A stretch of DNA of 64,000 bases. Origin: a bacterium. Lineage in GTDB: Bacteria; Patescibacteriota; Patescibacteriia; JAACEG01; JAGUWE01. The notes under the pieces were generated by a model. It saw only the letters and a list, made by a program, of their open reading frames with translations. It was not told where the DNA came from and did not search any database. Shown piece after piece: positions 3,123-56,147 of this stretch. Where the stretch lies: assembly GCA_043798995.1 (NCBI GenBank), contig JAZDOD010000009.1:14015-78014 (forward strand). The letters run 5' to 3'. How positions within the stretch are numbered: the first letter of the stretch is position 1; each line of letters begins with the position of its first letter. A program made the position numbers and the translations under genes.

Positions 3123-3137
3123 AAATTAATTAAAGTT

Positions 3138-3272
3138 GCTCGGAAAGTAGTTTTTAGAAGACGTTCGCTCGCCCGGCGTGCTCGCTCACTCAGGTCCTCG
3201 GCTCGCTCTTCCGCCTTTGGCGGAAACCATGCCCGCTCGCCTGTGGATGCTTCTAAAAATTACTTTCCTCGC
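3138..3272. mobile_element. MITE-like element with ~23-bp terminal inverted repeats
   Basis: Left end gctcggaaagtagtttttagaag (3138-3160) versus right end cttctaaaaattactttcctcgc (3250-3272) gives 20/23 as inverted repeats. The core is GC-rich with repeated gctcgc motifs. It is intergenic between two minus-strand genes. Confidence 0.45.
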
Positions 3273-3282
3273 TTTTTAATTG

Positions 3283-4227: not shown

Positions 4228-5279
4228 TCGCTTTTTGGTTTTTCTAATGATAGTGGTTCAATTTGTTTTTCACCGCCGGCGATTTTGACAACGTCCTTGT
4301 CAATTTTGGCAAATTCTTTATAAGCAGTATTATAAGAATTAACGGTGGTAGACAAATTATTACCTAATTTTTTCAGGTATTCATCGTAGTTAAGCAAGTG
4401 TTTGCCCAAAATTTCAATCCGTTTTCTAATTTCCTTGGCCGATTCTTCAATTTGCAGCGCTCGCAGCCCCTGGAGCACGGTCTGCAGATAGGCAAAGAAA
4501 GAAGTTGGTGAAACAATGATGACACGTTTTTCCTGAAAAGCATATTCAAGCAAATCCCGGGTTGAAACTTTAACTGCCCCAACCTGGTTGACTAGCAAAT
4601 CATAATAAATTGCTTCAGCCGGAATAAACATAAAAGCAAAATCCATCGTGTCTTTTTCCGGCCGGATGTATTTGGCAGTTTCATCAATGCGAGCTTTTAA
4701 ATCCTGTTTGAAAAGTTTTTCTAATTTTTCTCTTTCTGATTCATTCTTTTCCGCCACAATTTTGTTGTAGTTGTCCAAAGAAAATTTGGCATCAATGGGA
4801 ATAATTTTCTTTTGGATAAAAATGGCAGCGTCAACAATTAAATCCGCGCCATTTTCGTCTTTGCCCAAATTATATTGAAGTTTGTAAGTATTGGGCGGCA
4901 GAACATTTTTCAACAGTGTCTCAAGATAAAACTCGCCCAAGATGCCGCGCTGCTTCGGATTTTTTAAAATATCCTGCAAGCTCTGCAGTTGTTCGGTAAA
5001 ACTCATCACCTGCTTGTTGGTTTCTTCAAGTTTGGCCAGTTTTTCACTTAGTTCGCGGTAAATCTGATGGGTGATATTAGATTGAGCGTGAATTACTTGA
5101 TGAGATTCGCTTAACTTGCCGTCAACCGCTTTGGTTAATTCATTAAGCTGATTTTGGAGCATTAAAATGCCTTGGTCGCCTTTTTCCCGCTCTAAAATGC
5201 TTTTAAATTTTTGGTTTACGATATATAAAAAAAGGCCAAAACAGGCAAGAAAAATAATGATAATAAAAAATATTTCCAT
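4224..5279 (-). CDS. rmuC: DNA recombination protein RmuC-like
   Basis: N-terminal TM segment, then a long coiled coil, then a conserved C-terminal core (IPIDAKFSLDNY...DFAFMFIPAEAIYYDLL) typical of RmuC/DUF195. The start is set at the internal Met (MEIFFIII). The 22 codons upstream in the track ORF are the translated palindromic repeat R1. Confidence 0.65.
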   Translation of the reverse strand: MEIFFIIIIFLACFGLFLYIVNQKFKSILEREKGDQGILMLQNQLNELTKAVDGKLSESHQVIHAQSNITHQIYRELSEKLAKLEETNKQVMSFTEQLQSLQDILKNPKQRGILGEFYLETLLKNVLPPNTYKLQYNLGKDENGADLIVDAAIFIQKKIIPIDAKFSLDNYNKIVAEKNESEREKLEKLFKQDLKARIDETAKYIRPEKDTMDFAFMFIPAEAIYYDLLVNQVGAVKVSTRDLLEYAFQEKRVIIVSPTSFFAYLQTVLQGLRALQIEESAKEIRKRIEILGKHLLNYDEYLKKLGNNLSTTVNSYNTAYKEFAKIDKDVVKIAGGEKQIEPLSLEKPKSE

Positions 5280-5294
5280 AAAGTTAAAGATTAA

Positions 5295-5398
5295 CCCCTC
5301 CTTTTTAAAAGGAGGGTTAGGGAGGATTTTAAAAATCTCCCTCAATCCCTCTTTTACAAAGAGGGAGGAGAAAATTCTCCTTTAACAAAGGGGATTTT
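5295..5398. repeat. cluster of tandem hairpins, copy R1 of the CCCTCCTTTTAAAAGGAGGG-TTAGGGNGGATTTT family
   Basis: Contains cccctcctttttaaaaggaggg, ttagggaggattttaaaaatctccc and tccctcttttacaaagaggga. Related copies occur at 11019, 11843, 45804 and 49278. Confidence 0.5.
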
Positions 5399-7263: not shown

Positions 7264-8787
7264 TTACTCCACTTTCGGGCGGTATTGCAAGGCCTCGGCC
7301 AGGTGAGGAAGCTCAATGGTTTCTGATTCGGCTAAATCGGCAATGGTGCGGGAAAGTTTGAGGAGGCGGAAATAAGAGCGGGCCGAAAGATGAAGCTGGC
7401 TGACCGCGTTTCTTAAAAGTTCGCGGGCCGGCATGCCGATTTGGCAGAATTCTTTGACCAGCTGCGAAGACATTTCCGCATTGGTCAGAATTTTTAATTT
7501 TTTAAATCTTTTGGCCTGAAGCCGTCGGGCGTGTTCAATTCTTTTTCTGACAGCGGTTGATTTTTCGGCTTGGGAGTCATCATCTAATTTTTCAAATTTA
7601 ATTTTCGGCACCTCAATATGAAGATCAATGCGATCTAAAAGCGGGCCCGAAACTCTTTTTTGATATTTGATAATCTGTGAAGCCGAGCAGATACACTGAC
7701 GGTCCGGATCAGAGTAATAACCGCAGGGGCAGGGGTTTTGCGCCGCCACTAAGATAAATTTGGCCGGAAATTGCAAAGTGCCGGCGGCGCGGGAAACCGT
7801 AATAATGCCATCTTCCAAGGGTTGGCGCAGATTTTCCAAAACTGAATGAGGAAATTCCGCAAATTCATCCAGAAATAAAACTCCGCGGTGAGCCAAACTG
7901 ATTTCTCCGGGCTTGGGCCAGGTGCCGCCGCCGACCAAAGACACGCCCGAAGCGGTGTGATGCGGCGAACGAAAAGGCCGCATTGTAATGAGCGGTTGAT
8001 TTTCCGGCAAAAGCCCGCTGACGCTATAGATTTTTGTCACTTCCAAAGCTTCTTCCAATGTCAGTTGCGGCAGAATTGAAGGCAGAGCTTTGGCCAAAAG
8101 AGTTTTACCGGTGCCGGGCGGTCCGCTCATTAGAATATTATGCGCTCCGGCCGCGGCGATTTCCAAAGCTCGTTTGGCATGCTCCTGGCCCTTGATATGA
8201 GCTAAATCAATTTCAAAATTTAATCCCGGTTCATTAGATAGCAGTGTTTTTTCCCTGGCTTCAATTAATTCTTTAGTATTTAAATGGTTAATTAGCTGAT
8301 TTAAATTTTCTACCGGATAAACATTTAAACCTTCAATCAGGGTTGCTTCGTTGGCATTATCGCGGGGCAAAAAAAGATTTTTAATTTTTTTCTCTTGGCA
8401 AAGCAAAGCCGCTAATAAAACGCCATTGACCGGCCGCAATGTGCCGTCAAGCGAAAGCTCGCCAATAAAAACAGAATCATGAATTAGTTCCGATTCATTG
8501 TTTATTTGGCCTGAAGCCAGAAGAAGCGAAACTGCCAAAGGCAAGTCATAAGCCGGCCCTTCTTTTTTTAAATCAGCCGGCGCTAAATTAACCGTGATGC
8601 GCGTTCGCGGAAAAGCTAAGTCGCTATTTTTGATGGCCGAACGGACGCGTTCGCGCGATTCCTGAACCGAAGTGTCGGGCAGGCCCACCACCACAAAACT
8701 GCCGAGCCCGGCCGAAATATCGGCCTCAACCTCAACTAAAGCGCACTCAAGTCCGACCGGAGCAGCCGAAAATATTTTTGAGGACAT
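7264..8787 (-). CDS. comM: YifB/ComM family Mg-chelatase-like AAA+ ATPase
   Basis: 507 aa. N-terminal Lon-like domain (MSSKIFSAAPVGLECALVEVEADIS). Walker A GPPGTGKT, Walker B, and a C-terminal ChlI-like region. Full-length match to the family pattern. Confidence 0.85.
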   Translation of the reverse strand: MSSKIFSAAPVGLECALVEVEADISAGLGSFVVVGLPDTSVQESRERVRSAIKNSDLAFPRTRITVNLAPADLKKEGPAYDLPLAVSLLLASGQINNESELIHDSVFIGELSLDGTLRPVNGVLLAALLCQEKKIKNLFLPRDNANEATLIEGLNVYPVENLNQLINHLNTKELIEAREKTLLSNEPGLNFEIDLAHIKGQEHAKRALEIAAAGAHNILMSGPPGTGKTLLAKALPSILPQLTLEEALEVTKIYSVSGLLPENQPLITMRPFRSPHHTASGVSLVGGGTWPKPGEISLAHRGVLFLDEFAEFPHSVLENLRQPLEDGIITVSRAAGTLQFPAKFILVAAQNPCPCGYYSDPDRQCICSASQIIKYQKRVSGPLLDRIDLHIEVPKIKFEKLDDDSQAEKSTAVRKRIEHARRLQAKRFKKLKILTNAEMSSQLVKEFCQIGMPARELLRNAVSQLHLSARSYFRLLKLSRTIADLAESETIELPHLAEALQYRPKVE

Positions 8788-10980: not shown

Positions 10981-11001
10981 TTATCCACAGATTTATCCAC
11001 A
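10981..11001 (+). promoter_or_regulatory. two tandem perfect DnaA boxes (TTATCCACA x2)
   Basis: ttatccacag-at-ttatccaca matches the DnaA-box consensus TTATNCACA exactly, twice, 3 nt apart. Further boxes occur at 11830 (TTATCCACT, 1 mismatch) and 42886 (perfect). Confidence 0.4.
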
Positions 11002-11018
11002 GATTAAATCTCCTTTAA

Positions 11019-11086
11019 TCCCTCTTTTTCAAAGAGGGAACTTTTATTCCCTCCTTTTAAAAAGGAGGGTTAGGGTGGATTTTTGA
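11019..11086. repeat. palindromic hairpin cluster, copy R2
   Basis: tccctctttttcaaagaggga + ccctccttttaaaaaggaggg + ttagggtggattttt, immediately 3' of the minus-strand gene ending at 11103. Probably acts as its terminator. Confidence 0.5.
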
Positions 11087-11102
11087 AATTACTCATCCGA
11101 AA

Positions 11103-11762: not shown

Positions 11763-11842
11763 AATATTTTGTTAATTAAAAAAATTTATATTTTAATCCT
11801 ACCACACCCCCACCCCAAACCGCAAATTATTTATCCACTTTT

Positions 11843-11900
11843 AAAAATCTCCCCCAACCCCTCTTTAACAAAGAGGGGAGGACAAATAAATCCCTCTTAG
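11843..11900. repeat. palindromic hairpin cluster, copy R3
   Basis: aaaaatctccccc, cccctctttaacaaagagggg. An adjacent inverted repeat aatgacaaag...ttgtcatt lies at 11925-11965. Confidence 0.4.
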
Positions 11901-13916: not shown

Positions 13917-14018
13917 GCGGGCCAGGTCTACCAGGCCTGCCCCGTACCTTTCCGCCAGCCGGCGGATCTGGTGCGGGGTTCCACCACTCGCCCAAAATTA
14001 AAAACAAGAAAAAAGTTG
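13917..14018 (-). other. GC-rich (~60%) structured spacer between the two tRNA-Leu genes, possible small ncRNA or processing element
   Basis: Three hairpins can be drawn: UGGUG-N8-CACCA, CCGCC-GGCU-GGCGG, and a GGCC-rich stem. The GC content stands out from background, as for structured RNAs in low-GC genomes. No family assigned. Confidence 0.2.
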
Positions 14019-39982: not shown

Positions 39983-41239
39983 ATGTCAAATAAATTCAAT
40001 CCATTTAAGCCAAATAGTCCTGTGTTTACGGGAATGTTTGCAGGTAGAGAAAAAGAAATTAACGGTATAGCCAGATCATTATTCCAAACAAAAAATGGAA
40101 ATCCGAACCACATTTTACTTGTTGGTGAACGAGGTATCGGCAAAACATCTCTTTTGTCTTTAGCTAATAATTTTGCAAAAAATGAAATAATATGGGATGA
40201 ACAAAATTATAATTTTTTAACCATCCAAATTAATCTTTCAGAAAAAATGACTATGGCCGATTTGGCTGTATCCTTAAAAATTAAAGTCGAAAGAGAATTA
40301 GAAAAAATAAATCCAGAGATTACATTAATAAAAAAATGCTGGGATCATATTCTTAAAATCGAAGCAGGTGGAATTAAGTATAGAGGTTCCGATAATATGC
40401 AAGATGAAGAACCACAAATTTGTGAAAAATTTACGCATTCTCTAGTTGATACTGTTAAAAAATTAACTCAAGATACTGCAGCGAGCGAAGTTGGTATAAC
40501 CCAAAAAAAAGATGGGATGGTAATTTTAATAGATGAGGCCGACAGAGCAAATAAGTCTCTAAATTTAGGATCATTTTTAAAAAACTTAACGGAAGCTCTA
40601 AGTGTTGAAAATTGTAATAAAATATTATTTATACTTGCTGGACTACCCAATATACGTAAAATCCTTCTAGAAAGTCACGAATCATCATTGAGATTATTTC
40701 AAGAATATGAATTGCCTCCACTCTCAAAAAATGAGACAGATGAAGTAATAACGAGAGGCATTAAAGAAGGAAATGAAGCATCTAATTCAAAAATTACAAT
40801 AGGCCGCAAAGCTTTGGATTTAATTTATATATATTCAGAGGGTTATCCTCATTTTGTACAACAAATTGGGTATTCTTGTTTTGAGGTAAATTCTGATGAA
40901 GAAATTGACGAAGAAGATATTAAAAAAGGCTTTTTTATGAAAGGAGGCGCCTTAGACCTAATTGGTAATAGGGGTTACAAAAAGTTATATTATTCAGACA
41001 TAAACGTTGATTCGCAAAGAGAAATTCTTGATATTATGGCCGATAATTGGAATGATTGGGTATCGCGAGACAATATAATTAAAAAATTTTCAGGAAAAAA
41101 AACCGCACTTAATAATGGGTTAAGAGCATTAAAAGAAAAAAGTATTATTTTAATAAAAGAAGGTGAGAGGGGAAAATATAGATTACAATGGGCGAGTTTT
41201 GCTTTTTGGATAAAGAATCATAAAAAAATACAAAAATAA
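39983..41239 (+). CDS. AAA-type ATPase (archaeal-ATPase / ORC-Cdc6-like P-loop NTPase) with C-terminal winged-helix-like domain
   Basis: Walker A GERGIGKTSLL. Walker B MVILIDEADR. The C-terminus RDNIIKKFSGKKTALNNGLRALKEKSIILIKEGERGKYRL looks like a wHTH. The exact family is not assignable. Confidence 0.5.
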   Translation: MSNKFNPFKPNSPVFTGMFAGREKEINGIARSLFQTKNGNPNHILLVGERGIGKTSLLSLANNFAKNEIIWDEQNYNFLTIQINLSEKMTMADLAVSLKIKVERELEKINPEITLIKKCWDHILKIEAGGIKYRGSDNMQDEEPQICEKFTHSLVDTVKKLTQDTAASEVGITQKKDGMVILIDEADRANKSLNLGSFLKNLTEALSVENCNKILFILAGLPNIRKILLESHESSLRLFQEYELPPLSKNETDEVITRGIKEGNEASNSKITIGRKALDLIYIYSEGYPHFVQQIGYSCFEVNSDEEIDEEDIKKGFFMKGGALDLIGNRGYKKLYYSDINVDSQREILDIMADNWNDWVSRDNIIKKFSGKKTALNNGLRALKEKSIILIKEGERGKYRLQWASFAFWIKNHKKIQK

Positions 41240-41254
41240 AAATTAAATTAACAT

Positions 41255-41345
41255 CAGCTAACAGCGTGTATCGGGTTCGGTCTTCTCCGAAAGCCTCCGC
41301 CAAATTTGCCTCCGCTACGCTACGCAAACTTTAGATATTCCTAAA
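41255..41345. repeat. post-stop junction element, copy C of the TAACAGCG...AACGTTA family
   Basis: Starts gctaacagcgtg and ends ctaaacgttaagg. Internal direct repeat cctccgcc/cctccgct. Immediately follows the stop at 41239. Confidence 0.35.
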
Positions 41346-41385
41346 CGTTAAGGTGAAATTTAATTTTTAATTTAATAAAATTGAT

Positions 41386-41817
41386 ATGGACTCAAACAAA
41401 TTGCCTCGTAACATTATTTTAGTTAGCATCTTAATAATCGCCGTATCCATTGGTTATTATTATTTAATTTTTCTGCCTCAAAAAGAACGTAATAGAATAG
41501 AAGCCGAAAATCAAAAACGCGTTGAATCTATTAAAAATGATTGCATTGACAGAGTTTTAAAAGAAATGAAAAACGAACATCCTAAAATGGAAACTGAGGA
41601 AATCACTAGTTTTCGAATTGCTAGTGATCGAGGTTGTTTTATTGAGGCGGGTTGCATGAAAGGTGTTCAAGATAATTATTTTAAAGCTAAATTTGATGAG
41701 TGTAATAATGAATATTATAATACTTGTTTAGCAGGACTTAAAAACAAAGTAGATGAAATGATTGAGGCAGAAAAATTAAAAAGAATCAATGAATGTATAA
41801 ATCTATATTCAAATTAA
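41386..41817 (+). CDS. hypothetical membrane-anchored Cys-rich protein
   Basis: N-terminal TM anchor and a C-terminal domain with six Cys residues (CIDRV...CFIEAGC...CNNEYYNTC...CIN). Confidence 0.4.
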   Translation: MDSNKLPRNIILVSILIIAVSIGYYYLIFLPQKERNRIEAENQKRVESIKNDCIDRVLKEMKNEHPKMETEEITSFRIASDRGCFIEAGCMKGVQDNYFKAKFDECNNEYYNTCLAGLKNKVDEMIEAEKLKRINECINLYSN

Positions 41818-41820
41818 AAA

Positions 41821-41860
41821 TATAACTTCACTTAACACGGTTTATCCGATTCGCTCGCTA
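41821..41860. repeat. post-stop junction element, copy A (ATAACACGGTTTATCCGATTCGC)
   Basis: cacttaacacggtttatccgattcgctcgc, 4 nt after the stop at 41817. A near-identical copy B lies at 43600-43645. Confidence 0.45.
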
Positions 41861-41881
41861 AAAATATTAATTCGAAAATTT

Positions 41882-42076
41882 ATGGACAATAAACAATTAA
41901 CTAAGGATGATCTATTTAGGTGGCTATCAAATAAAATTGGTGGCGCGTCTATGGACGTTATTTTAGAAACTTTTTTAAAATTTAGTGATAGAGAATCATT
42001 ATTTTGTTTTGTAAAAGAGCTTGAAAATGAAGGGCTTATTTACAAATATAATGGTGAATTTTGGATAAAAAAATAA
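41882..42076 (+). CDS. small hypothetical protein (64 aa, winged-helix-like)
   Basis: MDNKQLTKDDLFRWLSNKIGGASMDVILETFLKF...GLIYKYNGEFWIKK. No family assignable. Confidence 0.35.
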   Translation: MDNKQLTKDDLFRWLSNKIGGASMDVILETFLKFSDRESLFCFVKELENEGLIYKYNGEFWIKK

Positions 42077-42195
42077 ATGCCTATTTTATATTCATAAATA
42101 TTTTTAGCTCGCTCACCCAAATTTGGTAGTAGTGAGCACTGGCGCGTAAATTATACCACTGCCAAATTTCGGCTATCCCAAGCCATTAGCCGCTA

Positions 42196-42831
42196 TTGCC
42201 TTTAAAGAGGATAAAAAATATGGGATTATTTTCACTTGATTATCAAAACATGCCAGGCCAGTGTATCTATGCCAAAGGTGGCTTGAAGTTCCGTGCCGAC
42301 GAAGATGCACTACGCCACTACTTTGCCCCAATTTTGCCTTATGTGTCTCTAAACGATCTTATCGGCGAAAGTGTTTTCTGGTCTATGCTACCATCAACAG
42401 TGGCTATCTGGACATTTCCTTTTCTTCTTCATAGTCAAGGAATCCTATTTGCTATAATCGCCACACTAGCCCTCTATTTAGTTGCGGAAATAGGTCATAT
42501 GGCTTTCTATATAAAGCCGCTCAATTACGTAGTTTTCATTTTAGGAAATCAGTTCCTCTCGTTGGTCGTTTATATTATCTGGGCAGTAATACTCATTCTC
42601 TCTGGTTCTATAGTTGGAGCTATAATTTTGGGGGTGTGGTTTTTGTTTTTTGCGCTTGGTCTTAGTCAAATAATATTTCTTTTGCCAATAATTCCCTTCC
42701 TTACAAAACTTTTTTCCTTACCACCATCTGATCAGGTGTTAAAAAACGTTGGCTGGCATTGTGCTAGAAAATTTGGAATTGACCCAACTAAATGGAAGAT
42801 GTATGACCAAAAAACAGGCAACGGCGGCTAA
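42196..42831 (+). CDS. hypothetical membrane protein
   Basis: 211 aa with about five TM helices. Confidence 0.4.
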   Translation: MPLKRIKNMGLFSLDYQNMPGQCIYAKGGLKFRADEDALRHYFAPILPYVSLNDLIGESVFWSMLPSTVAIWTFPFLLHSQGILFAIIATLALYLVAEIGHMAFYIKPLNYVVFILGNQFLSLVVYIIWAVILILSGSIVGAIILGVWFLFFALGLSQIIFLLPIIPFLTKLFSLPPSDQVLKNVGWHCARKFGIDPTKWKMYDQKTGNGG

Positions 42832-42900
42832 CAGCGGATAAAAGGGAAATTAAAGATTTCCCCAAATTGCCTTCGGCAACTTCTTTTATCCACAAAACGT
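42826..42900. repeat. post-stop junction element, copy D, imperfect ~70-bp palindrome containing a perfect DnaA box
   Basis: gctaacagcggataaaag...cttcttttatccacaaaacgtta. The arms ggataaaag and cttttatcc pair, and there is an internal hairpin gggaaat...atttccc. It overlaps the stop at 42831. Confidence 0.4.
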
Positions 42901-42924
42901 TATATGAAATAATAAAAAAATTTA

Positions 42925-43596
42925 TTGCTTATGAATGACTTTAATGATATTGTCGAGAGACATAGAAAAAGAGGCGAAGAAATTGTAGAAAAGTTTAAAC
43001 AGGACTCAGAAAGGAGGGAAGCCAAAATGGCTAAAGGCGTAGAGCGACTTGAGGATTTATCAATGCAGAATTTCGCCTCTTGGCGAGATTATCTATACAA
43101 ATACTTCAGCGTTATCTTATTACTTATCGGAGCCACAGGAGTTTTGCAATCGGAAAAGTTTAATGACCCATGGTTTAAAGCAGGTATATTCACAACTCTG
43201 GTTGGAGTCTTCATTGGCTATGTTTTTATCAATATATATTTCTATATAGAAAGAAAGTGGCTCCAAGCGCAAAATATCATTGGCTTAGAAGGAACTTACT
43301 CTTTACATGAACACCCCAAAGCAAAAACGGGCGATATCCGAGAAGCAATTATCCTCCATCAGCTAGATTATATAGAACAGATCAAGAAAAGATTAGAGGA
43401 AGCTAAAGCGAATAATGACAAAAAAATGATAAGACATTACAAAAAGGTTATTAGGATTAATAAGCGATTAAACTTTTCCATCAAATTTACTGGGGAGCAG
43501 TTTGGTATAATAGAACACATTTGGATATCAGGGACAATACTAAGCTTATTCCTAACGATCTCTGGTATAGCAATTGTTTTCTTAAACATTCGATAA
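42925..43596 (+). CDS. hypothetical membrane protein with N-terminal coiled-coil segment
   Basis: 223 aa with four TM helices. Confidence 0.4.
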   Translation: MLMNDFNDIVERHRKRGEEIVEKFKQDSERREAKMAKGVERLEDLSMQNFASWRDYLYKYFSVILLLIGATGVLQSEKFNDPWFKAGIFTTLVGVFIGYVFINIYFYIERKWLQAQNIIGLEGTYSLHEHPKAKTGDIREAIILHQLDYIEQIKKRLEEAKANNDKKMIRHYKKVIRINKRLNFSIKFTGEQFGIIEHIWISGTILSLFLTISGIAIVFLNIR

Positions 43597-43599
43597 AAT

Positions 43600-43645
43600 T
43601 TTTGATTACATCCAATAACACGGTTTATTCGATTCGCGTTTGTTA
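43600..43645. repeat. post-stop junction element, copy B (ATAACACGGTTTATTCGATTCGCG), ends in GTTAAAT
   Basis: ccaataacacggtttattcgattcgcgtttgttaaat, which is 22/23 identical to copy A over the core. Starts 4 nt after the stop at 43596. Confidence 0.45.
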
Positions 43646-43966
43646 AATAAATTATTTTTTAATAATTACAGTCCTATGAATTTAGTAAGCACTAACCTCA
43701 AAAAAATCATTTTAGTAACTAGTGTAATATTAATGGTTGGAACAGTTAGTACAAGGGCATTGTTTCTACGAGAAGGGAATATTATAATTGGTTCCCTGTT
43801 CTCAATAGGATTTGGACTTTTAATCTCTCTTGGAGTATTGATTACTATACAAAAAATATTTTTCAATAAAAATATTAAAAAATGCTCTTTTTGTTCTGAA
43901 GAAATTTTAGCTGATGCAATCAAATGTAGATATTGCGGTGAATTTTTAAATAAAAAAATAAAATGA
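43640..43966 (+). CDS. membrane protein with C-terminal zinc ribbon
   Basis: Two TM helices, then CSFCSEEILADAIKCRYCGEF. Confidence 0.4.
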   Translation: MLNKLFFNNYSPMNLVSTNLKKIILVTSVILMVGTVSTRALFLREGNIIIGSLFSIGFGLLISLGVLITIQKIFFNKNIKKCSFCSEEILADAIKCRYCGEFLNKKIK

Positions 43967-44130: not shown

Positions 44131-44382
44131 TTTCATTCAAAAATAAAAATATTTAGTAAACGCTCATCCAAATGCGCTTTCGCTAAAGCTCCAGCGCTCC
44201 AGGTGTTATACAAAAAAGTTCAACCAAAAAAGACGGAAAATATAGCCGTCTTTTTAAAATGTCATCCTGATCCGCCAGTCGGCGGATTCAGGATTTCTTA
44301 ATTAATATATCAAAATGTCGAGATAAGTTCGTCCCAAAGAGATTCTGAAACAAGTTCAGAATGACAAATTAATTATTTAAAC

Positions 44383-44431
44383 TTGACAGGATATTTTACT
44401 TATGTTAGTATTGTAATACAATGTATTACAA
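44383..44431 (+). promoter_or_regulatory. promoter TTGACA-17-TAGTAT with adjacent perfect palindromic operator TTGTAATACAatgTATTACAA
   Basis: -35 at 44383-44388 and -10 at 44406-44411. A 10+10-bp perfect inverted repeat at 44411-44431 lies 17 nt before the antitoxin start. This layout is typical of RHH-antitoxin autoregulation. Confidence 0.45.
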
Positions 44432-44447
44432 TTAATCAAAAAAAAAT

Positions 44448-44663
44448 ATGCGTGAAATAATCAATATTTCCCTGCCTTCTCCGCTGGTCAAAACCGTTAA
44501 AAAAGCGGTTAAAGAAGGCGATTATATGAGTGTTAGCGAATTTTTTCGTGATTTACTGCGGGACTGGCAGAAAGGTAAATTATTAAGCGAGCTCAACGAA
44601 AGCCGCGAAGAAATTAGATCCGGCAAGGGCAAAACCTTAAAATCCTTAAAGGATTTAAGATAG
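44448..44663 (+). CDS. ribbon-helix-helix (ParD/CopG-like) antitoxin
   Basis: 71 aa. INISLPSPLVKTVKKAVKEGDYMSVSEFFRDLLRDWQ has a beta-alpha-alpha pattern. It lies 8 nt upstream of a RelE/ParE-family toxin gene. Confidence 0.6.
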   Translation: MREIINISLPSPLVKTVKKAVKEGDYMSVSEFFRDLLRDWQKGKLLSELNESREEIRSGKGKTLKSLKDLR

Positions 44664-44671
44664 TTTTCTGT

Positions 44672-44932
44672 ATGAATATTGTTTATAGCTCAAAATTTGC
44701 GCGTGAATACAGAAAATTACCTAACAATATAAAAACCATTGCCGAGCAACAAGAAAAAATATTTCGCAAAAATCCTTTTGACCAAAAACTAAAAACTCAC
44801 AAACTAAAAGGCAGGTTGAAAGGATTTTTATCTTTTTCTATTGGTTATCAGTACCGAATAATTTTTGAATTCGGAAAAGATAAAAAAACCGTCTATTTTC
44901 ATTTTGTTGGTAACCATGGTATTTATCAATAA
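44672..44932 (+). CDS. RelE/ParE-family toxin (type II TA)
   Basis: 86 aa. KTHKLKGRLKGFLSFSIGYQYRIIFEF...KKTVYFHFVGNHGIY matches the RelE/ParE/YafQ pattern (KL.G....E.RIG.YR.I..I..D..V.I..IGHR..IY). Confidence 0.7.
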   Translation: MNIVYSSKFAREYRKLPNNIKTIAEQQEKIFRKNPFDQKLKTHKLKGRLKGFLSFSIGYQYRIIFEFGKDKKTVYFHFVGNHGIYQ

Positions 44933-45227
44933 CAAATCAATAACCACATTAAGTATAACCAAAAAAGACGGATTACATTTTCCGTCTTTTTTGATGTCAC
45001 CCTGAACTTGTTTCAGGGTCTCTTTTAGGACTTCCATAGATGCTGAAATAAATTCAGCATGACAGATAAAAAATTGTTCGAGATTGCTACTCCGCCAGAG
45101 GCGGATCGCAATGACATTTTAGTTTAAGTTTTAAAATTAGTTCATTAAAAATTATTTAAAAATTGTCCACCGGAGGCGGATCCGCCTTGGGCGGAAAAAT
45201 TTAAAATTTAAAATTAAAAATTTTAAA

Positions 45228-45791
45228 TTACACTCTCTCCACATACAACCCCGTATCGGTATTAACGCGGAGAATGTCTCCTTCTTTGACAAAAAGCGGG
45301 GCGTTAACAATAAGGCCGGTTTCTAAAGTGACTTGTTTGGTAGCGCTGCCTTGGGCAGTATCCCCGCGCACGGCTGGCGGAGAAGAAATAACCTTGTAAT
45401 CAATTTTTTTTGGTAGTTCAATATTTACCGGCTGGTTATTAAAATACAAAACTATAACTTCTATGCCTTCTTTTAAAAATTTAACCCGTTCATTTAATTG
45501 TTCGGCGCTGAAATTAAACTGCTCAAAAGTTTCGTTATCCATAAAAAAATAACCTTGAGCGTCTTGATAAAGAAAATTAGCTTTGTGTTTTTCTAAGTCG
45601 GCTTCCTCAACTTTATCGCCCGGCTTGAAATTAATTTCCAAGACCTTGCCGCTTAAGAGATTTTTCAGTTTTGTCTGCATCACCGGTTTTCTTTGCTGGC
45701 AACGCATAAAATGAGCCTCTACCACTTGGTAGGGCTCATTGTTTATTTTTAAACATAATCCTTGCTTGATGTCGTTAAGCGAAGAAATCAT
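45228..45791 (-). CDS. efp: elongation factor P
   Basis: 187 aa starting MISSLNDIKQGLCLK. KOW-like N-terminus and two OB domains. The start is trimmed from the longer track ORF, whose extension translates repeat R4. Confidence 0.85.
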   Translation of the reverse strand: MISSLNDIKQGLCLKINNEPYQVVEAHFMRCQQRKPVMQTKLKNLLSGKVLEINFKPGDKVEEADLEKHKANFLYQDAQGYFFMDNETFEQFNFSAEQLNERVKFLKEGIEVIVLYFNNQPVNIELPKKIDYKVISSPPAVRGDTAQGSATKQVTLETGLIVNAPLFVKEGDILRVNTDTGLYVERV

Positions 45792-45803
45792 ATGGTTCGT
45801 TTT

Positions 45804-45840
45804 CCCCTCCTTTGAAAAAGGAGGGTTAGGGGGATTTTTA
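45804..45840. repeat. palindromic hairpin element, copy R4
   Basis: cccctcctttgaaaaaggagggttagggggatttt. It fills the efp-rpsR intergenic space. Confidence 0.5.
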
Positions 45841-46071
45841 CTATCTTTTAAGAAAGGGTATAAGCGCCATAATGCGGGCGCGTTTAATGGCTTCGGCCAT
45901 TTTTCTTTGATGTTTGGCGCAGAGGCCGCTTTTTCGCCGCGGTCTGATTTTGGCATAAGAAGACAAAAATCGTCGCAATATTTGCGCATCTTTGTAATCA
46001 ACTCTTTGTTCAGCATTAAGGCAAAAATAACAATTTTTTCTTTGTCTGATTATAGTATTTTTTTTAAGCAT
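45841..46071 (-). CDS. rpsR: 30S ribosomal protein S18
   Basis: 76 aa. YFCLNAEQRVDYKDAQILRRFLSSYAKIRPRRKSGLCAKHQRKMAEAIKRAR matches the S18 pattern. Confidence 0.9.
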   Translation of the reverse strand: MLKKNTIIRQRKNCYFCLNAEQRVDYKDAQILRRFLSSYAKIRPRRKSGLCAKHQRKMAEAIKRARIMALIPFLKR

Positions 46072-47116: not shown

Positions 47117-48340
47117 ATGCCTCAATACTTCTTTATTTTAGGGAAAAATAAAAATTTGTCAATAGCCGAAATTGCCGGTAAATTTGCCAATGGGGCTGAC
47201 TTTGTAAGCGCAGAATTAGCTGACGGCGCTTTGATGGTTGAGTCAAAAAAAGAGTTAAACCCCACCATAATGTTAAATGAGCTGGGTGGCACAGTCAAAA
47301 TCGGAGAGGTTTTAAAATCAATTGATAATTTAGGATGTATCAACGCTAAGGAAATAATCGCCCTTCTTTCTTTTAAAGACAAGAAAAAGGTTTTTTTTGG
47401 CTTTAGCTCTTATGGTTTTCTAAATAATACTAAATTAGCTAAACAAATCCAAAAATTAGCATTGATTCTTAAAAAAGAATTAAAAGCGCGAGGTTTTACC
47501 TCGCGCTGGGTAACTTCAAAAGAGCTACAGCTTTCGTCAGTAATAGTTAAGAAAAATCGGCTTTTAGAGCAGGGCGCTGAAATTATTTTTATTCAAGCCA
47601 GAAACATGCTTTATTTAGGTAAAACATTAGCGGTTCAGGAATTTGCCGATTACAGTTTTCGCGACTATGGCCGGCCAGCGCGCGATAGCGCCTCTGGAAT
47701 GTTACCGCCAAAACTGGCTAAAATTATGGTTAATTTAGCCTGGGCTGAAAAGTCAGATGCAATTTTAGATCCTTTTTGCGGTTCGGGCACGATTTTATCT
47801 GAAGCCGCGTTTTTAGGCTATCAAAATCTAATCGGCGTTGACATTAGCCAAAAAGCAATTTCCGACAGCCGAGATAATTTAGAATGGCTTGAACGGAATT
47901 TTAAATTTAAAATTTTAAATTTAAAATTATTGAATATTGATGTAAGAATCATTTCGCAAAAAATAGCAGCCAATTCAATCGATGTAATCGTTACCGAACC
48001 TTATCTTGGACCAACTAAACTATTAAAAAGCGAAGAAGAAGTAAAAAAAGTTATCGCTGAATTAAGCGAATTATATCTTAAATCTTTTGGGGAATTTAAA
48101 AAAGTTTTAAAACCTCAAGCTAAAATTGTCATTATCTTGCCGATTTTAAAAATTAAAAATAAACTTTTTCAGCTTCCAATTTTAGATGAGATTAAAAAAT
48201 ATGGTTTTAAAACTGAATCATTTTTGCCTTCATTTTGGCCACCGGATTTAGTTCAAACTACTGCCCGCGGCTCAATCATTTACAGCCGTCCGGATCAGTA
48301 TGTTTTAAGGGAGATTTTTATATTTTCGTCCAAAGATTGA
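47117..48340 (+). CDS. putative RNA methyltransferase (UPF0020/THUMP-associated class I SAM MTase)
   Basis: LDPFCGSGTILSEAAFLGY...GVDIS (SAM-binding motif I of the N6-adenine/N2-guanine RNA MTase family) and the DPPY-like TEPYLG. Confidence 0.55.
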   Translation: MPQYFFILGKNKNLSIAEIAGKFANGADFVSAELADGALMVESKKELNPTIMLNELGGTVKIGEVLKSIDNLGCINAKEIIALLSFKDKKKVFFGFSSYGFLNNTKLAKQIQKLALILKKELKARGFTSRWVTSKELQLSSVIVKKNRLLEQGAEIIFIQARNMLYLGKTLAVQEFADYSFRDYGRPARDSASGMLPPKLAKIMVNLAWAEKSDAILDPFCGSGTILSEAAFLGYQNLIGVDISQKAISDSRDNLEWLERNFKFKILNLKLLNIDVRIISQKIAANSIDVIVTEPYLGPTKLLKSEEEVKKVIAELSELYLKSFGEFKKVLKPQAKIVIILPILKIKNKLFQLPILDEIKKYGFKTESFLPSFWPPDLVQTTARGSIIYSRPDQYVLREIFIFSSKD

Positions 48341-49212: not shown

Positions 49213-49277
49213 CTTTCACGAGGCGCGTAAGTCAAAAAAGACCCAAACGCCTCTCTTTTTTAACTTCAATATATTTT

Positions 49278-49348
49278 CCCCCTTTGTAAAAGGGGGATTA
49301 AGGGGGATTTATAAATCCACCCCAACCCTCCTTTATTAAAGGAGGGGG
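49278..49348. repeat. palindromic hairpin cluster, copy R5
   Basis: ccccctttgtaaaaggggg + gggggatttataaatccacccc + ccctcctttattaaaggaggggg. Confidence 0.5.
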
Positions 49349-51758: not shown

Positions 51759-52016
51759 TTACTTTTTATTTAAATAATTTTTTAATCTTTGTTTTAAAAA
51801 TCTTTTTCTTATGCCACTTTTTAGATATTTTTCTCTTTGTTTTGCGTCTTTTTTATTTAGACAGGCTTCGTAGTAAATTAGTTTTAAAGGCCTTCTAAAT
51901 TTTGTTGATAAATTAAGTCCTTTATTATGCTGCGTAACTCTGTTTTTTAAGTCATCCGTATAACCAGTGTAAAAGTTATTATCTTTTGAACTTTGGAGAA
52001 CGTAAGTATAGTACAT
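51759..52016 (-). CDS. GIY-YIG nuclease superfamily small protein (UPF0213-like)
   Basis: MYYTYVLQSSKDNNFYTGYTDDLKNRVTQHN contains the GIY-(N10)-YIG core. Confidence 0.65.
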   Translation of the reverse strand: MYYTYVLQSSKDNNFYTGYTDDLKNRVTQHNKGLNLSTKFRRPLKLIYYEACLNKKDAKQREKYLKSGIRKRFLKQRLKNYLNKK

Positions 52017-52132
52017 AATTTTAGGGTGGACCCCGTAAGAAGTCAGCCCAACGCTACTTTAATAGAAACTGAGAATTTAAAAATCAATAGGGCACTTTTT
52101 ATATAAAGATACATTTGTCTGACTTCTTACGG

Positions 52133-52533
52133 GGTGGAGATGAGGGGAGTTGCACCCCTGTCTAAAGATTCTCGTTTAAAAACTTCTACAAATTTAGTCC
52201 TATTTTTTTCTCGGCTTAAAATAAAAAATAAGACAAAAACTTTTAAGCCAGAGTCTTATTTGTGGTTCGATAAATTAGCAAAGACCGCTCTAATTTATCT
52301 AGTCTAATAATTATGACACCGAAACTACCTATTAGACATCAGTAGCCCCAGTGGGCCGTTTCAATTAAGCAACAGCCATTGCCAAAGAAGGAGTGGCAAT
52401 TGCTTGCGCAATCGCAGTCCTTACTTTGTTAACAAGTGTTTTTGCACTTATAATTTGTCAGCGGTTTAAAGAGCAACTAACAGCTCCATTTGCCGTTTTT
52501 AAAAAGAACCTCTGGCGAAGCTTAGGCATCCCC
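52133..52533 (-). ncRNA. ssrA: tmRNA (SsrA) candidate, directly downstream of smpB
   Basis: 5' end GGGGAUGCCUAAGCUUCGCCAGAGG resembles the tmRNA start GGGGcUGauUcuGgaUUCGaCgGG. 3' end AGGGG-UGCAACU-CCCCU-CAUCUCC-A-CC gives a T-arm plus acceptor strand pairing with the 5' GGGGAUG (one G-U). An in-frame tag-like ORF ends ...SLAMAVA-UAA. A 16-bp perfect inverted repeat (52029-52044 / 52120-52135) lies immediately 3'. Confidence 0.6.
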
Positions 52534-53213: not shown

Positions 53214-56147
53214 ATGTCCGAGAAATCTAAATTTGCCCAGAAGGAAGAAGAGATACTTGCTTTCTGGGAGCAAAACAAAATTTTTGAAAAAACGCTAACC
53301 AAAAAATCGCCCAAGGGTGATTATGTTTTTTATGATGGCCCGCCGTTTGCCACCGGCCTGCCCCATTACGGCCATATCGTGGCCTCTTTAATGAAAGATG
53401 CGATACCGCGTTTTCGGACAATGCAGGGCTATCACGTTGAACGTCGCTGGGGCTGGGATTGTCATGGCCTGCCGGTTGAAAATTTAGCCGAGAAAGAATT
53501 AAACCTTAAAACTAAAAAAGAAATTGAAGCGCGCGGTATTGATAAATTTAATGCTTATTGCCACAGTATTGTGCTTCGTTACGCTAAAGAGTGGCAGGGC
53601 ATAGTCAAACGTTTAGCCCGCTGGGTTGATATGGAGCGCGACTACAAAACTATGGAACCGAATTATATGGAATCAATCTGGTGGGTTTTCAAAAGTTTAT
53701 TTGACAAAGGTTTGATTTATGAAGATTACCGCGTCACGCCTTATTGCCCGCGTTGCGGCACCCCGCTTTCCAATTTTGAGCTTAATCAGCCCGGCGCTTA
53801 TCGCGAAGTTTCCGACCAATCAGTTTATGTGAAATTTCCCGTCAAAGGACAGGGCAACACCTATTTTTTAGTTTGGACCACCACGCCGTGGACATTACCC
53901 GCTAATACTGCTTTAGCTATTGGCAAAGATATCGATTATGTTTTAATAAAACTCAATCCGCCAGCCGGCAGACAAAACTCAAAACTGATTCTTGCTAAAA
54001 AAAGATTAGAAGTAATAAAAGATGAATACGAAATCATTAAGACAATCAAAGGCAAAGATTTGGTTGGTTTAGAATACGAACCTTTATATCCGATGAAATT
54101 AGATAAAACTGGCTACAAAGTTGTAGCCGCGGATTTTGTTTCAACCGAAGATGGCACTGGCATTGTTCATATTGCCCCGGCTTTTGGCGAAGACGATATG
54201 AATTTAGGCAAAGCCGAGAATTTGCCAACGGTTATTACCGTTGATTTGGAAGGAAAGGTGATTAAAAATTTGGGCATTCCCGGCGAGGGTGAATTTGTCA
54301 AAATTGCCGACGAAGATATTAAGACAAATTTTAAAAATCGTGATTTATTATTTAAAGAAGAAAAAATTGTTCACAGTTATCCTTTTTGCTGGCGTTGCGA
54401 ATCGCCACTTCTGTATTATCCGATTCATAGCTGGTATGTAGCGGTGACGAAAATTAAAGACAAGGTTGTTGCCAACAATCAGAAAATCAATTGGGTGCCG
54501 GCTCACTTAAAAGAAGGGCGTTTTGGCAAATGGCTTTCGGAAATTCGCGACTGGGCGATTTCGCGCAATCGTTTTTGGGGCTCTCCAATTCCAATTTGGA
54601 GATGCCAAACTGGTAAAAATCAAAAATCCCCGCCAGAGGCGGGTCCGCCTTTGGAGGAAAAAGTCAAAAGTCAAAAGTCCTGCGTTAACATTAAAGTTAT
54701 TGGTTCAATTCGGGAATTAGAAGAATTAAGCGGGCAAAAAATTAATGATTTACATAAACATATTATTGATAAAATTATTTTTAAGTGTAAAAAATGCGGC
54801 GGGGAAATGAAAAGAGTGCCCGAAGTGCTTGATTGCTGGTTTGAATCCGGTTCTATGCCTTATGCCCAGTTTCATTATCCTTTCGCTAATAAAGAAAAAT
54901 TCTTAAACAATTTTCCGGCCCAGTTTATTGCCGAAGGCATTGACCAGACCCGCGGCTGGTTTTATACCCTCTTGGTTTTATCATCGGCCTTATTTAATAA
55001 GCCCGCGGCTAAAAATATTCTAGTCAATGGCATTGTTTTGTCTGAAGACGGCCAAAAGATGAGTAAATCCAAAGGTAATTTTCCTGACCCGCAACTCGTT
55101 TTTGATAAATACGGAGTTGATGCTTTGCGCTACTACCTTTTTTCTTCGCCGGTAATGGCGGCTGAAAATCTTAATTTTTCAGAAAAAGGCGTGGATGAAG
55201 CTTTAAAAAAAGTGGTAATACTTTTAGGCAATGTTTTGAATTTTTATTTGCTTTACGCGCCGAAAGAAAAGGCCCCAACTATAAAAGATAAAAAATCAAA
55301 CAATATTTTAGATCGCTGGATTTTAGCGCGGCTCAACCAATTAATCAGCGAAGAGACTCAGGCCTTAGAAAGTTATGATTTGCCGCGAGCTTGCCGGCCC
55401 CTAGCAGAATTCATCAATGATTTATCAACTTGGTATTTAAGAAGAAGCCGGGCTCGTTTTAAAGATGAAACCACTAAAAAAGAAGCTATTAATACCCTAA
55501 GATATACATTAAATATATTAAGTAAACTTTTAACTCCTTTTCTGCCTTTTATGGCCGAGGAAGTTTTTCAAACTGTCACCGGATATAATTTTAAAGCTTG
55601 CAGTAAATCAGTTCATTTGGCAGATTGGCCTAAGACGGAAAAAGCAGATCAAAAAATTATTGCAGAGATGGAGCCGGCCAAAAAAATTGTTGAGCAAGCT
55701 TTGTCAGCCAGAGCCAGGGCCGGAATTAAAATCCGCCAGCCGCTTAATTTTTATTCAACCGATTTGGTGAAAAAATTGTCCAAAGAAATTATTGAAATTA
55801 TCAAAGAAGAATTAAACATTAAGGAATTGCGTTTCGGCAAAGAAGAATTGGATATTAAAATTGATGATAAATTAAAAGAAGAAGGTTTGGTTCGCGATTT
55901 AACGCGCCTCATTAACAATTTAAGAAAAGAAGCCGGCCTCACCATTAATAACAGAGTCATAATTTATTTTGAATCGACTGATGAGCTGCTTAAAAAAATT
56001 ATTGCTAATAATAAAAAAGAACTTCTTGAAAATACTTTAAGCCAGGATTTTAAAGAAGAAAAAATTAATGAACAATCGTTTTATTTACTGGAAGCAAAAA
56101 TAGACGGGCAGGTTATTAAGTTAGGAATAAAAAGACAGTGGGATTAA
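53214..56147 (+). CDS. ileS: isoleucine--tRNA ligase, with an in-frame repeat-derived insertion in the zinc knuckle
   Basis: HIGH motif PHYGHIVAS. KMSKS. CP1 editing domain. Zn-binding Cys pairs. The extra segment TGKNQKSPPEAGPPLEEKVKSQKS between WRCQ and C is encoded by the 54605-54682 element. Confidence 0.92.
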   Translation: MSEKSKFAQKEEEILAFWEQNKIFEKTLTKKSPKGDYVFYDGPPFATGLPHYGHIVASLMKDAIPRFRTMQGYHVERRWGWDCHGLPVENLAEKELNLKTKKEIEARGIDKFNAYCHSIVLRYAKEWQGIVKRLARWVDMERDYKTMEPNYMESIWWVFKSLFDKGLIYEDYRVTPYCPRCGTPLSNFELNQPGAYREVSDQSVYVKFPVKGQGNTYFLVWTTTPWTLPANTALAIGKDIDYVLIKLNPPAGRQNSKLILAKKRLEVIKDEYEIIKTIKGKDLVGLEYEPLYPMKLDKTGYKVVAADFVSTEDGTGIVHIAPAFGEDDMNLGKAENLPTVITVDLEGKVIKNLGIPGEGEFVKIADEDIKTNFKNRDLLFKEEKIVHSYPFCWRCESPLLYYPIHSWYVAVTKIKDKVVANNQKINWVPAHLKEGRFGKWLSEIRDWAISRNRFWGSPIPIWRCQTGKNQKSPPEAGPPLEEKVKSQKSCVNIKVIGSIRELEELSGQKINDLHKHIIDKIIFKCKKCGGEMKRVPEVLDCWFESGSMPYAQFHYPFANKEKFLNNFPAQFIAEGIDQTRGWFYTLLVLSSALFNKPAAKNILVNGIVLSEDGQKMSKSKGNFPDPQLVFDKYGVDALRYYLFSSPVMAAENLNFSEKGVDEALKKVVILLGNVLNFYLLYAPKEKAPTIKDKKSNNILDRWILARLNQLISEETQALESYDLPRACRPLAEFINDLSTWYLRRSRARFKDETTKKEAINTLRYTLNILSKLLTPFLPFMAEEVFQTVTGYNFKACSKSVHLADWPKTEKADQKIIAEMEPAKKIVEQALSARARAGIKIRQPLNFYSTDLVKKLSKEIIEIIKEELNIKELRFGKEELDIKIDDKLKEEGLVRDLTRLINNLRKEAGLTINNRVIIYFESTDELLKKIIANNKKELLENTLSQDFKEEKINEQSFYLLEAKIDGQVIKLGIKRQWD
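54605..54682. repeat. GC-rich palindromic element embedded in-frame in ileS (paralog of the intergenic copy at 45165-45198)
   Basis: ccgccagaggcgggtccgcctttggagg flanked by aaaaatcaaaaat and gtcaaaagtcaaaag, versus intergenic ccaccggaggcggatccgccttgggcgg at 45168-45195. Related ccgccagaggcgg at 45099-45111. Confidence 0.45.

Follow-up and report, generated by a model that had tools for sequence, protein, structure and literature searches.

A 30-nucleotide (nt) palindromic element, here called E, lies in frame within the isoleucyl-tRNA synthetase gene (ileS) of an uncultured bacterium of the Patescibacteriota (JAGUWE01 lineage, assembly GCA_043798995.1), between two cysteines of the predicted zinc knuckle. 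The gene was studied within a 64,000-nt stretch of contig JAZDOD010000009.1 (positions 14,015 to 78,014, forward strand), which we call the window and whose numbering is used throughout. The closest known relative has the same gene without these 30 nt, and near-identical copies of E occur in many other uncultured bacteria. The ileS copy is probably a passenger, selfish or neutral, belonging to a family of very small palindromes that resemble repetitive extragenic palindromes (REP), Rickettsia palindromic elements (RPE) and small dispersed repeats (SDR), and not an adaptation.

A 30-nt indel in the zinc-knuckle loop of IleS

The host gene, its knuckle and the two layers of the insert are as follows.

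53214-56147, + strand: ileS, the host gene, an open reading frame (ORF) of 977 aa for a type-2 isoleucyl-tRNA synthetase (IleRS)
54603-54683, + strand: loop from Cys464 (54603-54605) to Cys490 (54681-54683), C-x25-C here against a basal state of C-x1-2-C
54615-54628, + strand: left arm of the older heptad tract, AAAAATC twice, common to the closest relative (L001)
54629-54658, + strand: E, the 30-nt two-hairpin element, CCCGCC-AGA-GGCGGG followed by TCCGCC-TTT-GGAGGA, encoding (S)PPEAGPPLEE (RNA fold -19.3 kcal/mol, z = -3.15)
54659-54679, + strand: right arm of the heptad tract, AAAAGTC three times (Tandem Repeats Finder, TRF: period 7, 3.0 copies, 100% matches)
54786-54797, + strand: second half of the zinc knuckle, C525-KK-C528, read from the sequence, with invariant cysteines

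The window IleS is 100% identical to an NCBI entry named 'MAG: isoleucine--tRNA ligase', encoded on a 135-kb contig; its next matches are all IleS proteins of Patescibacteria, and it matches the IleRS structures 1ILE and 8C8W. The zinc-knuckle pattern of type-2 IleRS (CxxC followed by CxxC or CxC, between the catalytic core and the KMSKS region) was found, with C464, C490, C525 and C528 as predicted zinc ligands. These four cysteines are invariant in 80 IleS sequences of the Candidate Phyla Radiation (CPR) and align to CQAC...CAC of the T. thermophilus enzyme (1ILE), where CQAC is the first cysteine pair. The loop translates as C464-QT-GKNQKSPPEAGPPLEEKVKSQKS-C490, in agreement with the insert sequence and translation that the original prediction had given, and the predicted peptide across E would read K.SPPEAGPPLEEK.

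The IleS protein of the closest relative (P0002, loci L001/L002) is 82% identical to that of the window. At the knuckle its gene reads TGC CAA ATT GGC, (AAAAATC)x4, AAAAATAT and TGT, an uninterrupted heptad tract encoding GKNQKSKIKNQKY. A MAFFT alignment over 11 kb (83.7% nucleotide identity) placed one 30-nt gap in the relative at 54629-54658, cccgccagaggcgggtccgcctttggagga, and BLASTP of the two proteins gave one 10-aa gap at E, PPEAGPPLEE. After the 30 nt are taken out, the heptad phase runs on across the junction, and the AAAAGTC units of the right arm align with AAAAATC units of the relative. No target-site duplication was seen at the junctions of the ileS copy. Two more distant proteins (P0028 and P0030, 54% identity) have a heptad-coded loop of the KNQKSKIK type without the E core, which was found in 0 of 119 other CPR IleS. 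Because both close and distant IleS genes have a heptad tract without the core, the tract is older or recurrent and the 30-mer a later insertion by parsimony; the indel would thus represent an insertion in the window lineage, not a deletion in the relative.

The original prediction was that an essential aminoacyl-tRNA synthetase (aaRS) had absorbed a dispersed repeat without losing frame, and the exact 30-nt gap in the relative, together with the 119 core-free IleS sequences, bears this out. It had also treated the palindrome and its flanking runs as one inserted composite. Here only part of the claim stands: the GC core is newly inserted, whereas the AAAAATC-type runs are an older in-frame tract that the relative has too.

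Among 120 IleS relatives, the length of the Cys464-Cys490 loop varies from 1 to about 32 aa. The alignment of orthologues, which had been proposed as a check, showed variable inserts at this site in many relatives, weakening the claim for the loop as a whole, and the E core in none. At the DNA level the longer loops consist of heptad tracts with or without GC hairpins from other families.

L003: AAAAACC twice, a GC core and AAATTCC
L125: AAAAATC/AAAAACC with hairpins
L126: (AAATYCG)n with one GC hairpin
L127: heptads alone
L124: CCCCCC/GGGGGG hairpins, akin to the CCCTCC family of the window (described below), reading PPLNKGG...PPLHKGG

Across CPR IleS, the first knuckle loop is permissive and a hot spot for inserts of heptads and hairpins. 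A second repeat-derived insert lies elsewhere in the same gene.

53955-53972, + strand: 18-nt in-frame insert, AA+TCCGCCAGCCGGCAGA (AA+TCCGCC-AGCC-GGCAGA), encoding N248-PPAGR253 (NPPAGR)

This single hairpin sits between AAAACTC heptads, at a turn whose short version is found in 78 of 120 IleS relatives, and its loop is identical to that of an intergenic single hairpin at 13951-13966.

An AlphaFold model of the window IleS, built with the 80-sequence CPR alignment, had a mean predicted local distance difference test score (pLDDT) of 88.9 and a predicted template modelling score (pTM) of 0.85. Residues 469-485, which correspond to the insert, are the sole segment with pLDDT below 50 and are flanked by confidently modelled strands. 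On this model, the insert would lengthen a disordered surface loop and leave the four zinc ligands intact.

Related copies in the window

The intergenic twin that had been predicted exists, with its core at 45166-45195 and (AAAATTT)n after it, and four single hairpins were also found.

45166-45195, + strand: intergenic E copy between convergent genes, TCCACC-GGA-GGCGGA followed by TCCGCC-TTG-GGCGGA
45196-45229, strand not assigned: (AAAATTT)n heptad tract abutting the intergenic E (TRF: period 7, 4.9 copies)
45091-45105, + strand: single hairpin TCCGCC-AGA-GGCGGA, equal to the consensus first hairpin of E, nested in the loop of a gagattgc...gcaatgac hairpin (45080-45116)
44271-44286, + strand: single hairpin TCCGCC-AGTC-GGCGGA inside an atcctga...ttcaggat hairpin (fold -21.5 kcal/mol, z = -5.1)
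13951-13966, + strand: single hairpin TCCGCC-AGCC-GGCGGA between two tRNA genes
3210-3224, + strand: single hairpin TCCGCC-TTT-GGCGGA, the same as the second hairpin of the consensus, within a GC-rich intergenic element

The sequence GAGGCGGRTCCGCCTTKGG occurs in the window only in the ileS and 45166 copies (0.03 matches expected by chance), and CCGCCAGAGGCGG, with at most two mismatches, has 8 matches against 0.45 expected. The ileS composite aligned without gaps to the intergenic region 45150-45215 at 43 of 55 bases with a score of 50, while 200 block-shuffled queries gave best-in-window scores of 26.3 ± 2.1 and a maximum of 34; the similarity is above chance, as had been claimed. The related third core is present as well, at 45092-45104, seven bases away from the 45099-45111 first assigned to it. 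Nesting like that of the hairpin at 45091 was also seen in loci L008 and L044.

The 45166 copy is terminator-like on the minus strand, downstream of efp. On the sense strand of ileS, E is followed by A-runs and not U-runs, which makes it unlike a terminator for ileS; a terminator-like arrangement is present on the antisense strand only. At gathering score, Rfam gave only the transfer-messenger RNA (tmRNA) and two tRNAs in the whole window and no family at E.

The GC-rich (49%) intergenic element at 3123-3282 has inverted flanks of about 20 nt (cggaaagtagtttttagaag / cttctaaaaattactttcc), with the single hairpin of E at its centre.

The E family across uncultured bacteria

In the family consensus, TCCGCC-NGA-GGCGGA is followed by TCCGCC-TTN-GGCGGA; these two tandem 15-nt stem-loops each have six base pairs in the GC stem and three nucleotides in the loop. 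The pattern CCNCCNGAGGCGGNTCCGCCTTNGG (21 fixed bases) was run against a single genome for each GTDB species and matched at least 120 contig stretches in more than 100 metagenome-assembled (MAG) or single-amplified (SAG) genomes. By our own estimate about 0.3 matches would be expected by chance, and fewer than 6 even if all DNA had 65% GC. All statistics on frames, flanks, covariation and genic share given below are for the matches listed (at least 120 stretches). These all come from MAGs or SAGs, including long-read MAGs and one SAG.

The taxa represented are many classes of Patescibacteria, Omnitrophota, Planctomycetota, Verrucomicrobiota, Kiritimatiellia, Lentisphaerota, Elusimicrobia, Bacteroidota, Ignavibacteriales, Zixibacteria, Margulisiibacteriota, Firestonebacteria, a Desulfotomaculaceae and others, although some of the submitters' taxon labels may be unreliable. 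Copies lie on contigs as large as 1.65 Mb, 868 kb and 403 kb, which speaks against mis-binning as a full explanation of this distribution.

The flanks of the copies are unrelated, and conservation stops sharply at T-CCGCC...GGCGG-A. A flank logo of 118 copies was T-rich at positions -3 to -1 and A-rich at +28 to +30. Covariation was seen at the closing pair of hairpin 1 (T-A in 92, C-G in 20, other in 6), and the compensatory stem variants TCAGCC/GGCTGA and TCTGCC/GGCAGA were found. The loops NGA and TTN are distinct and define the orientation everywhere. A single 15-bp hairpin whose loops pair was rejected, since covariation was absent between loop positions 5 and 22 but present in the closing pair of hairpin 1, which indicates that two separate hairpins are maintained.

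Further hairpin units were found in 27 of 120 E loci (39 units). Lineage-specific subfamilies arising as within-lineage bursts were considered and rejected; only a CCGG variant in Magasanikbacteria stood out, and the others were mixed across taxa. Two of 2.9 million viral contigs contained E, and cultured phages and plasmids gave no BLAST match to the consensus. In one of the viral contigs, a 34.8-kb contig from IMG/VR (L129), E lies at 7335-7359 in the SAxGG frame within a 1323-nt ORF, a putative phage gene. Literature searches by the sequence of E, by its encoded peptides and by topic (CPR with REP, REP-associated tyrosine transposase (RAYT) or the miniature transposable elements with inverted repeats called MITEs) returned nothing relevant.

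Genic location and reading frame

E had been described as a dispersed intergenic element. It is dispersed, but not mainly intergenic: about 66% of the copies lie in stop-free ORFs of at least 450 nt, compared with 84% of random positions from the same loci. Among 81 genic copies, the frame was SAxGGSAxGG in 69, PPxADPPLAE, the frame used in IleS, in 6, and RQRRIRLWR in 6 (chi-square p = 5e-22). Of the copies in the favoured frame, 50 have the orientation encoding SA[KEQ]GGSASGG and 19 that encoding SA[RG]GGSA[FL]GG. Such a bias is expected from selection on the translated peptide, and it speaks against removal of E before translation; it indicates that the copies are translated and filtered by selection against unfavourable frames.

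E amounts to 10 codons with no stop in any frame and so cannot break a reading frame. Stop-freeness in all six frames was rejected as a special property of E, as 30% of composition-matched shuffled 30-mers share it.

Hosts identified by Pfam were RpoC, GyrB, LeuRS (in the editing domain), PheT, another class-I aaRS, Mfd, a ClpB-like ATPase, ArsA and a type I restriction R subunit. In RecG (P0137, P0150, P0162, P0165, P0171 and P0204 were examined), several lineages have E after LHGK[LM], in either orientation and sometimes decayed, with one copy elsewhere in the protein; most RecG relatives do not have it. The RecG of L076 also has a second hairpin-coded insert (VIPTESRDEW...DPSTSLRYARDD).

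Origin of the ileS copy

If the ileS copy is a passenger, E would have been inserted after the window lineage split from its closest known relative, with a pre-existing in-frame (AAAAATC)n tract in the hypervariable knuckle loop as its landing site. The family would have spread into the genes and spacers of many lineages of uncultured bacteria, with selection purging the copies in unfavourable frames. E is then presumably mobile, and our leading guess is that a trans-acting enzyme moves it by single-strand hairpin transposition, preferring A/T tracts. The arrangement on one strand, two hairpins in tandem whose loops differ, could be likened to a minimal version of the paired end hairpins of IS200/IS605-type single-strand transposons. 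No RAYT or other transposase was identified beside E in the 64-kb window or in the 8-kb loci, and no profile search for Y1 transposases was made. Enrichment gave no support for small GIY-YIG nucleases as mobilisers, with 8 of 120 E loci and 1 of 7 IleS control loci containing one; the two striking cases near E adjoin tRNA copies. In these two unrelated MAGs (L045 590-700 and L112 4990-5075; Val-GAC and Pro-GGG), a partial tRNA copy abutting the GIY-YIG ORF has E in its D-loop (AGTT^GG), and an intact copy of that tRNA lies on the far side of the ORF.

Several observations weigh against a simple mobile passenger. Neither a target-site duplication nor a terminal inverted repeat or mobilising gene was identified, and the polarity of the insertion rests on parsimony with few close relatives. 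The ileS-E allele is known from one assembly, its IleS protein cluster has one member and it has no read-level support; an exact-junction scan of metagenome contigs of the Joint Genome Institute (JGI) found no independent assembly of the allele. The strict motif has 1-4 copies per genome, few by the standard of classical REP or MITE families. The RecG copies of L076 and L044 are identical at 29 of 30 positions where their flanks are 57-70% identical, and a purely neutral passenger leaves this unexplained. The RecG identity points to constraint at the nucleotide level, to re-homogenisation or gene conversion, or to repeated insertion.

The most plausible of the rival explanations, although an unlikely one in our judgement, is local templated repair or ectopic gene conversion, in which homology of the A-rich heptad arms would have driven the copying of the hairpin pair from another heptad-flanked copy of the same genome, e.g. 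that 9.4 kb upstream, with no transposition machinery. Both dimers of the window lie in A/T heptad tracts, and their similarity (43/55) reaches into the arms. Period-7 tandem repeats were found within 40 nt of 11% of E copies compared with 1.6% of random positions, with no other period enriched (Fisher p = 0.0016 at a stricter cut), and composites of heptads and hairpins are found again in the IleS loops of L003, L125 and L126 and in spacers of the relative. Heptad flanks were rejected as an intergenic-only feature, since they accompany 9 of 77 genic and 4 of 39 non-genic copies. Against gene conversion, about 89% of copies have no heptad flanks, and the heptad sequences differ among loci, such that arm homology is usually absent. 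The 45166 copy is ruled out as the direct donor, because the two window dimers differ from one another at 6 of 30 positions and each at only 3 from the family consensus.

It is less probable still, and we think it rather improbable, that the insert is functional, either as a selected protein loop of IleRS or as an RNA or DNA structure (one that blocks antisense transcription, affects mRNA stability or binds a protein, for example). The near-identity of the RecG copies, the stems kept by covariation, the terminator-like form of the IleS copy on its antisense strand only and that of the intergenic copy downstream of efp would fit such a role. The same 30-mer, however, is found in proteins unrelated to one another and at sites equally unrelated, as well as in a tRNA D-loop and in spacers; decayed copies exist, the closest IleS relative does without E, the segment is predicted to be disordered in IleRS, and in the IleS copy one stem pair (GGAGG) is already lost. 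Misassembly of a repeat in the MAG, as the source of the 30 nt, is very improbable. The allele comes from a single assembly and MAGs can be chimeric at repeats, but 30 nt is shorter than a read, IleS is collinear on both sides and in frame with no other disruption, and equivalent in-frame copies are known from over 100 independent assemblies, some of them long-read MAGs and one a SAG. We give almost no credence to a chance or compositional resemblance between intergenic GC hairpins and a native, vertically inherited variable segment. The knuckle loop is hypervariable in the IleS family, simple 5-bp GC stems can arise convergently, and nearly a third (30%) of the shuffled 30-mers were likewise stop-free; yet the shuffle controls fall far below the observed similarity, an exact 21-base motif recurs across phyla with unrelated flanks, and the NGA and TTN loops keep their distinct, orientation-defining positions. 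The GAGGCGGRTCCGCCTTKGG expectation (0.03), the CCNCCNGAGGCGGNTCCGCCTTNGG scan (at least 120 stretches) and the 43/55 alignment against shuffles refute this explanation.

Comparison with known repeats

Palindromes in frame within essential protein genes are already known from Rickettsia, where RPEs were reportedly described by Ogata et al. in 2000. RPEs and E are alike in being dispersed palindromes that lie in frame in essential protein genes and are translated as a tolerated extra surface segment, and E in IleS likewise leaves the protein intact (the ORF is unbroken, the cysteines are invariant and the insert is modelled as disordered). They differ in that RPEs are about 100-150 bp and confined to Rickettsia, whereas E has 30 nt and occurs in many phyla; an RPE also has a CGTC tag at one end (Di Nocera et al.) that E does not have. 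RPEs are treated in PMC3733652 and PMC10969869.

REP elements and the doublets called REPINs, with their RAYT transposases, have been described (PMC3116915, PMC3733652, PMC8266576), and REPs within ORFs have been catalogued (PMC3733652). E resembles REPs as an imperfect GC-rich palindrome of 20-40 nt, here two 15-nt stem-loops, that is sometimes found in ORFs, undergoes compensatory stem changes and is probably a single-strand hairpin substrate. However, REPs have a GTAG or CGTC tag, which is absent from the 118-copy flank logo of E, with TTT/AAA flanks instead. REPINs are inverted doublets, mostly extragenic and beside a RAYT gene, in contrast to the tandem hairpins with distinct loops of E, which are about 66% genic. 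REPs are also lineage-specific and of high copy number, whereas E has few copies per genome and nearly the same sequence across phyla. It is this near-identity and the mostly genic location that set E apart from the in-frame palindromes and intra-ORF REPs already known.

The SDRs of Nostoc and Anabaena (21-27 nt), cyanobacterial repeats that Elhai et al. are said to have described in 2008, are reportedly hairpin-forming and mobile, have neither terminal inverted repeats (TIRs) nor target-site duplications, and often lie in tandem heptanucleotide repeats or nested in other repeats. E fits these traits (a precise 30-nt indel, no target-site duplication, association with period 7, nesting), although the SDR sequences reportedly differ from E. 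To our knowledge, SDRs have not been reported as frequent in-frame inserts in essential genes or as cross-phylum repeats.

MITEs share with E a short, non-coding, dispersed and presumably non-autonomous nature; they are 70-300 bp long with TIRs and target-site duplications, neither of which was seen for E, where the heptad phase is continuous without the 30 nt. In an intrinsic terminator, a U-run comes after the GC hairpin on the transcribed strand, an arrangement that the ileS copy does not have and that the 45166 copy has on the minus strand. DNA uptake sequences (USS/DUS) are lineage-specific motifs of 9-12 nt that accumulate by substitution. They are like E in being short motifs that are frequent in genes, with a frame bias reflecting tolerated peptides, and unlike E in not producing clean 30-nt insertions.

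If the passenger reading is true, insertions in CPR proteins can arise when very small hairpin and heptad repeats land in loops that tolerate them, even between zinc-knuckle cysteines of an essential aaRS. Near-identity across phyla would be unexpected for REP-like repeats, which are usually lineage-specific, and would imply either that a minimal element spreads horizontally or that an enzyme recognising it is widely shared. The peptides SAKGGSASGG, SARGGSAFGG and PPEADPPLAE in MAG proteins would then mark repeat insertions and not native domain features, and could mislead alignments and annotation. More speculatively, and with doubt outweighing confidence on our part, E may be the smallest horizontally spreading mobile DNA so far: a stop-free 30-mer, nearly unchanged across Patescibacteria, the Planctomycetes-Verrucomicrobia-Chlamydiae (PVC) and Fibrobacteres-Chlorobi-Bacteroidetes (FCB) groups and other uncultured phyla, that goes in frame into essential genes, re-uses the same sites in both orientations, lands preferentially in A/T and heptad tracts and is moved by a widespread trans-acting enzyme. 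With its companion hairpin families, it would rank among the main causes of differences in protein length in CPR genomes.

Other repeats in the window and in the closest relative

Over the 11 kb compared, the indels between the window and its closest relative are mostly hairpin or heptad modules. The relative's IleS has five in-frame repeat-like inserts of its own (24, 12, 15, 15 and 12 nt; L001 3295-3750, corresponding to window 53844-54219), among them a CCCCC-TAC-GGGGG hairpin (SPPTGDLP) and TTCCAAA heptads (IPNSKFQIPNS). Its spacers hold two composites that the window does not have (291 and 127 nt; L001 324-615 and 1860-1990), in which inverted heptad arms (TTATCAA... / ...TTGATTG and TTTCTAA... 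/ ...TTAGAAA) surround GC hairpin modules, a layout like that of a MITE with heptad-array arms. The window in turn has about 336 nt extra between infC and the tmRNA gene (52132-52533, minus strand), including a small GIY-YIG nuclease ORF (51759-52016, minus strand); a 20-nt inverted copy of the tmRNA 3' end is present at 52024-52045 and 52118-52140.

Period 7 is the most frequent period among tandem repeats of the window (TRF). An (AATTTAA)n tract at 47897-47928 lies within the ORF 47117-48340, reads NFKFKILNLKLLN and may be an in-frame heptad insert. A multi-hairpin spacer family (CCCTCC-TTTAAAA-GGAGGG, GGGAGG...CTCCC) occurs at 5273-5365, 11000-11089, 11839-11877, 45782-45845 and 49254-49348. 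The region 44216-45030 holds a two-gene cassette (44448-44663 and 44672-44932, a putative toxin-antitoxin pair) bracketed by similar hairpin arrays; with its direct repeat (44216-44270 / 44951-45005) and inverted repeat (44336-44366 / 44995-45025), it may be mobile. A 33-nt direct repeat is present three times (41248-41280, 41822-41854 and 43605-43637) between the genes of an island of hypothetical proteins at 39983-43966.

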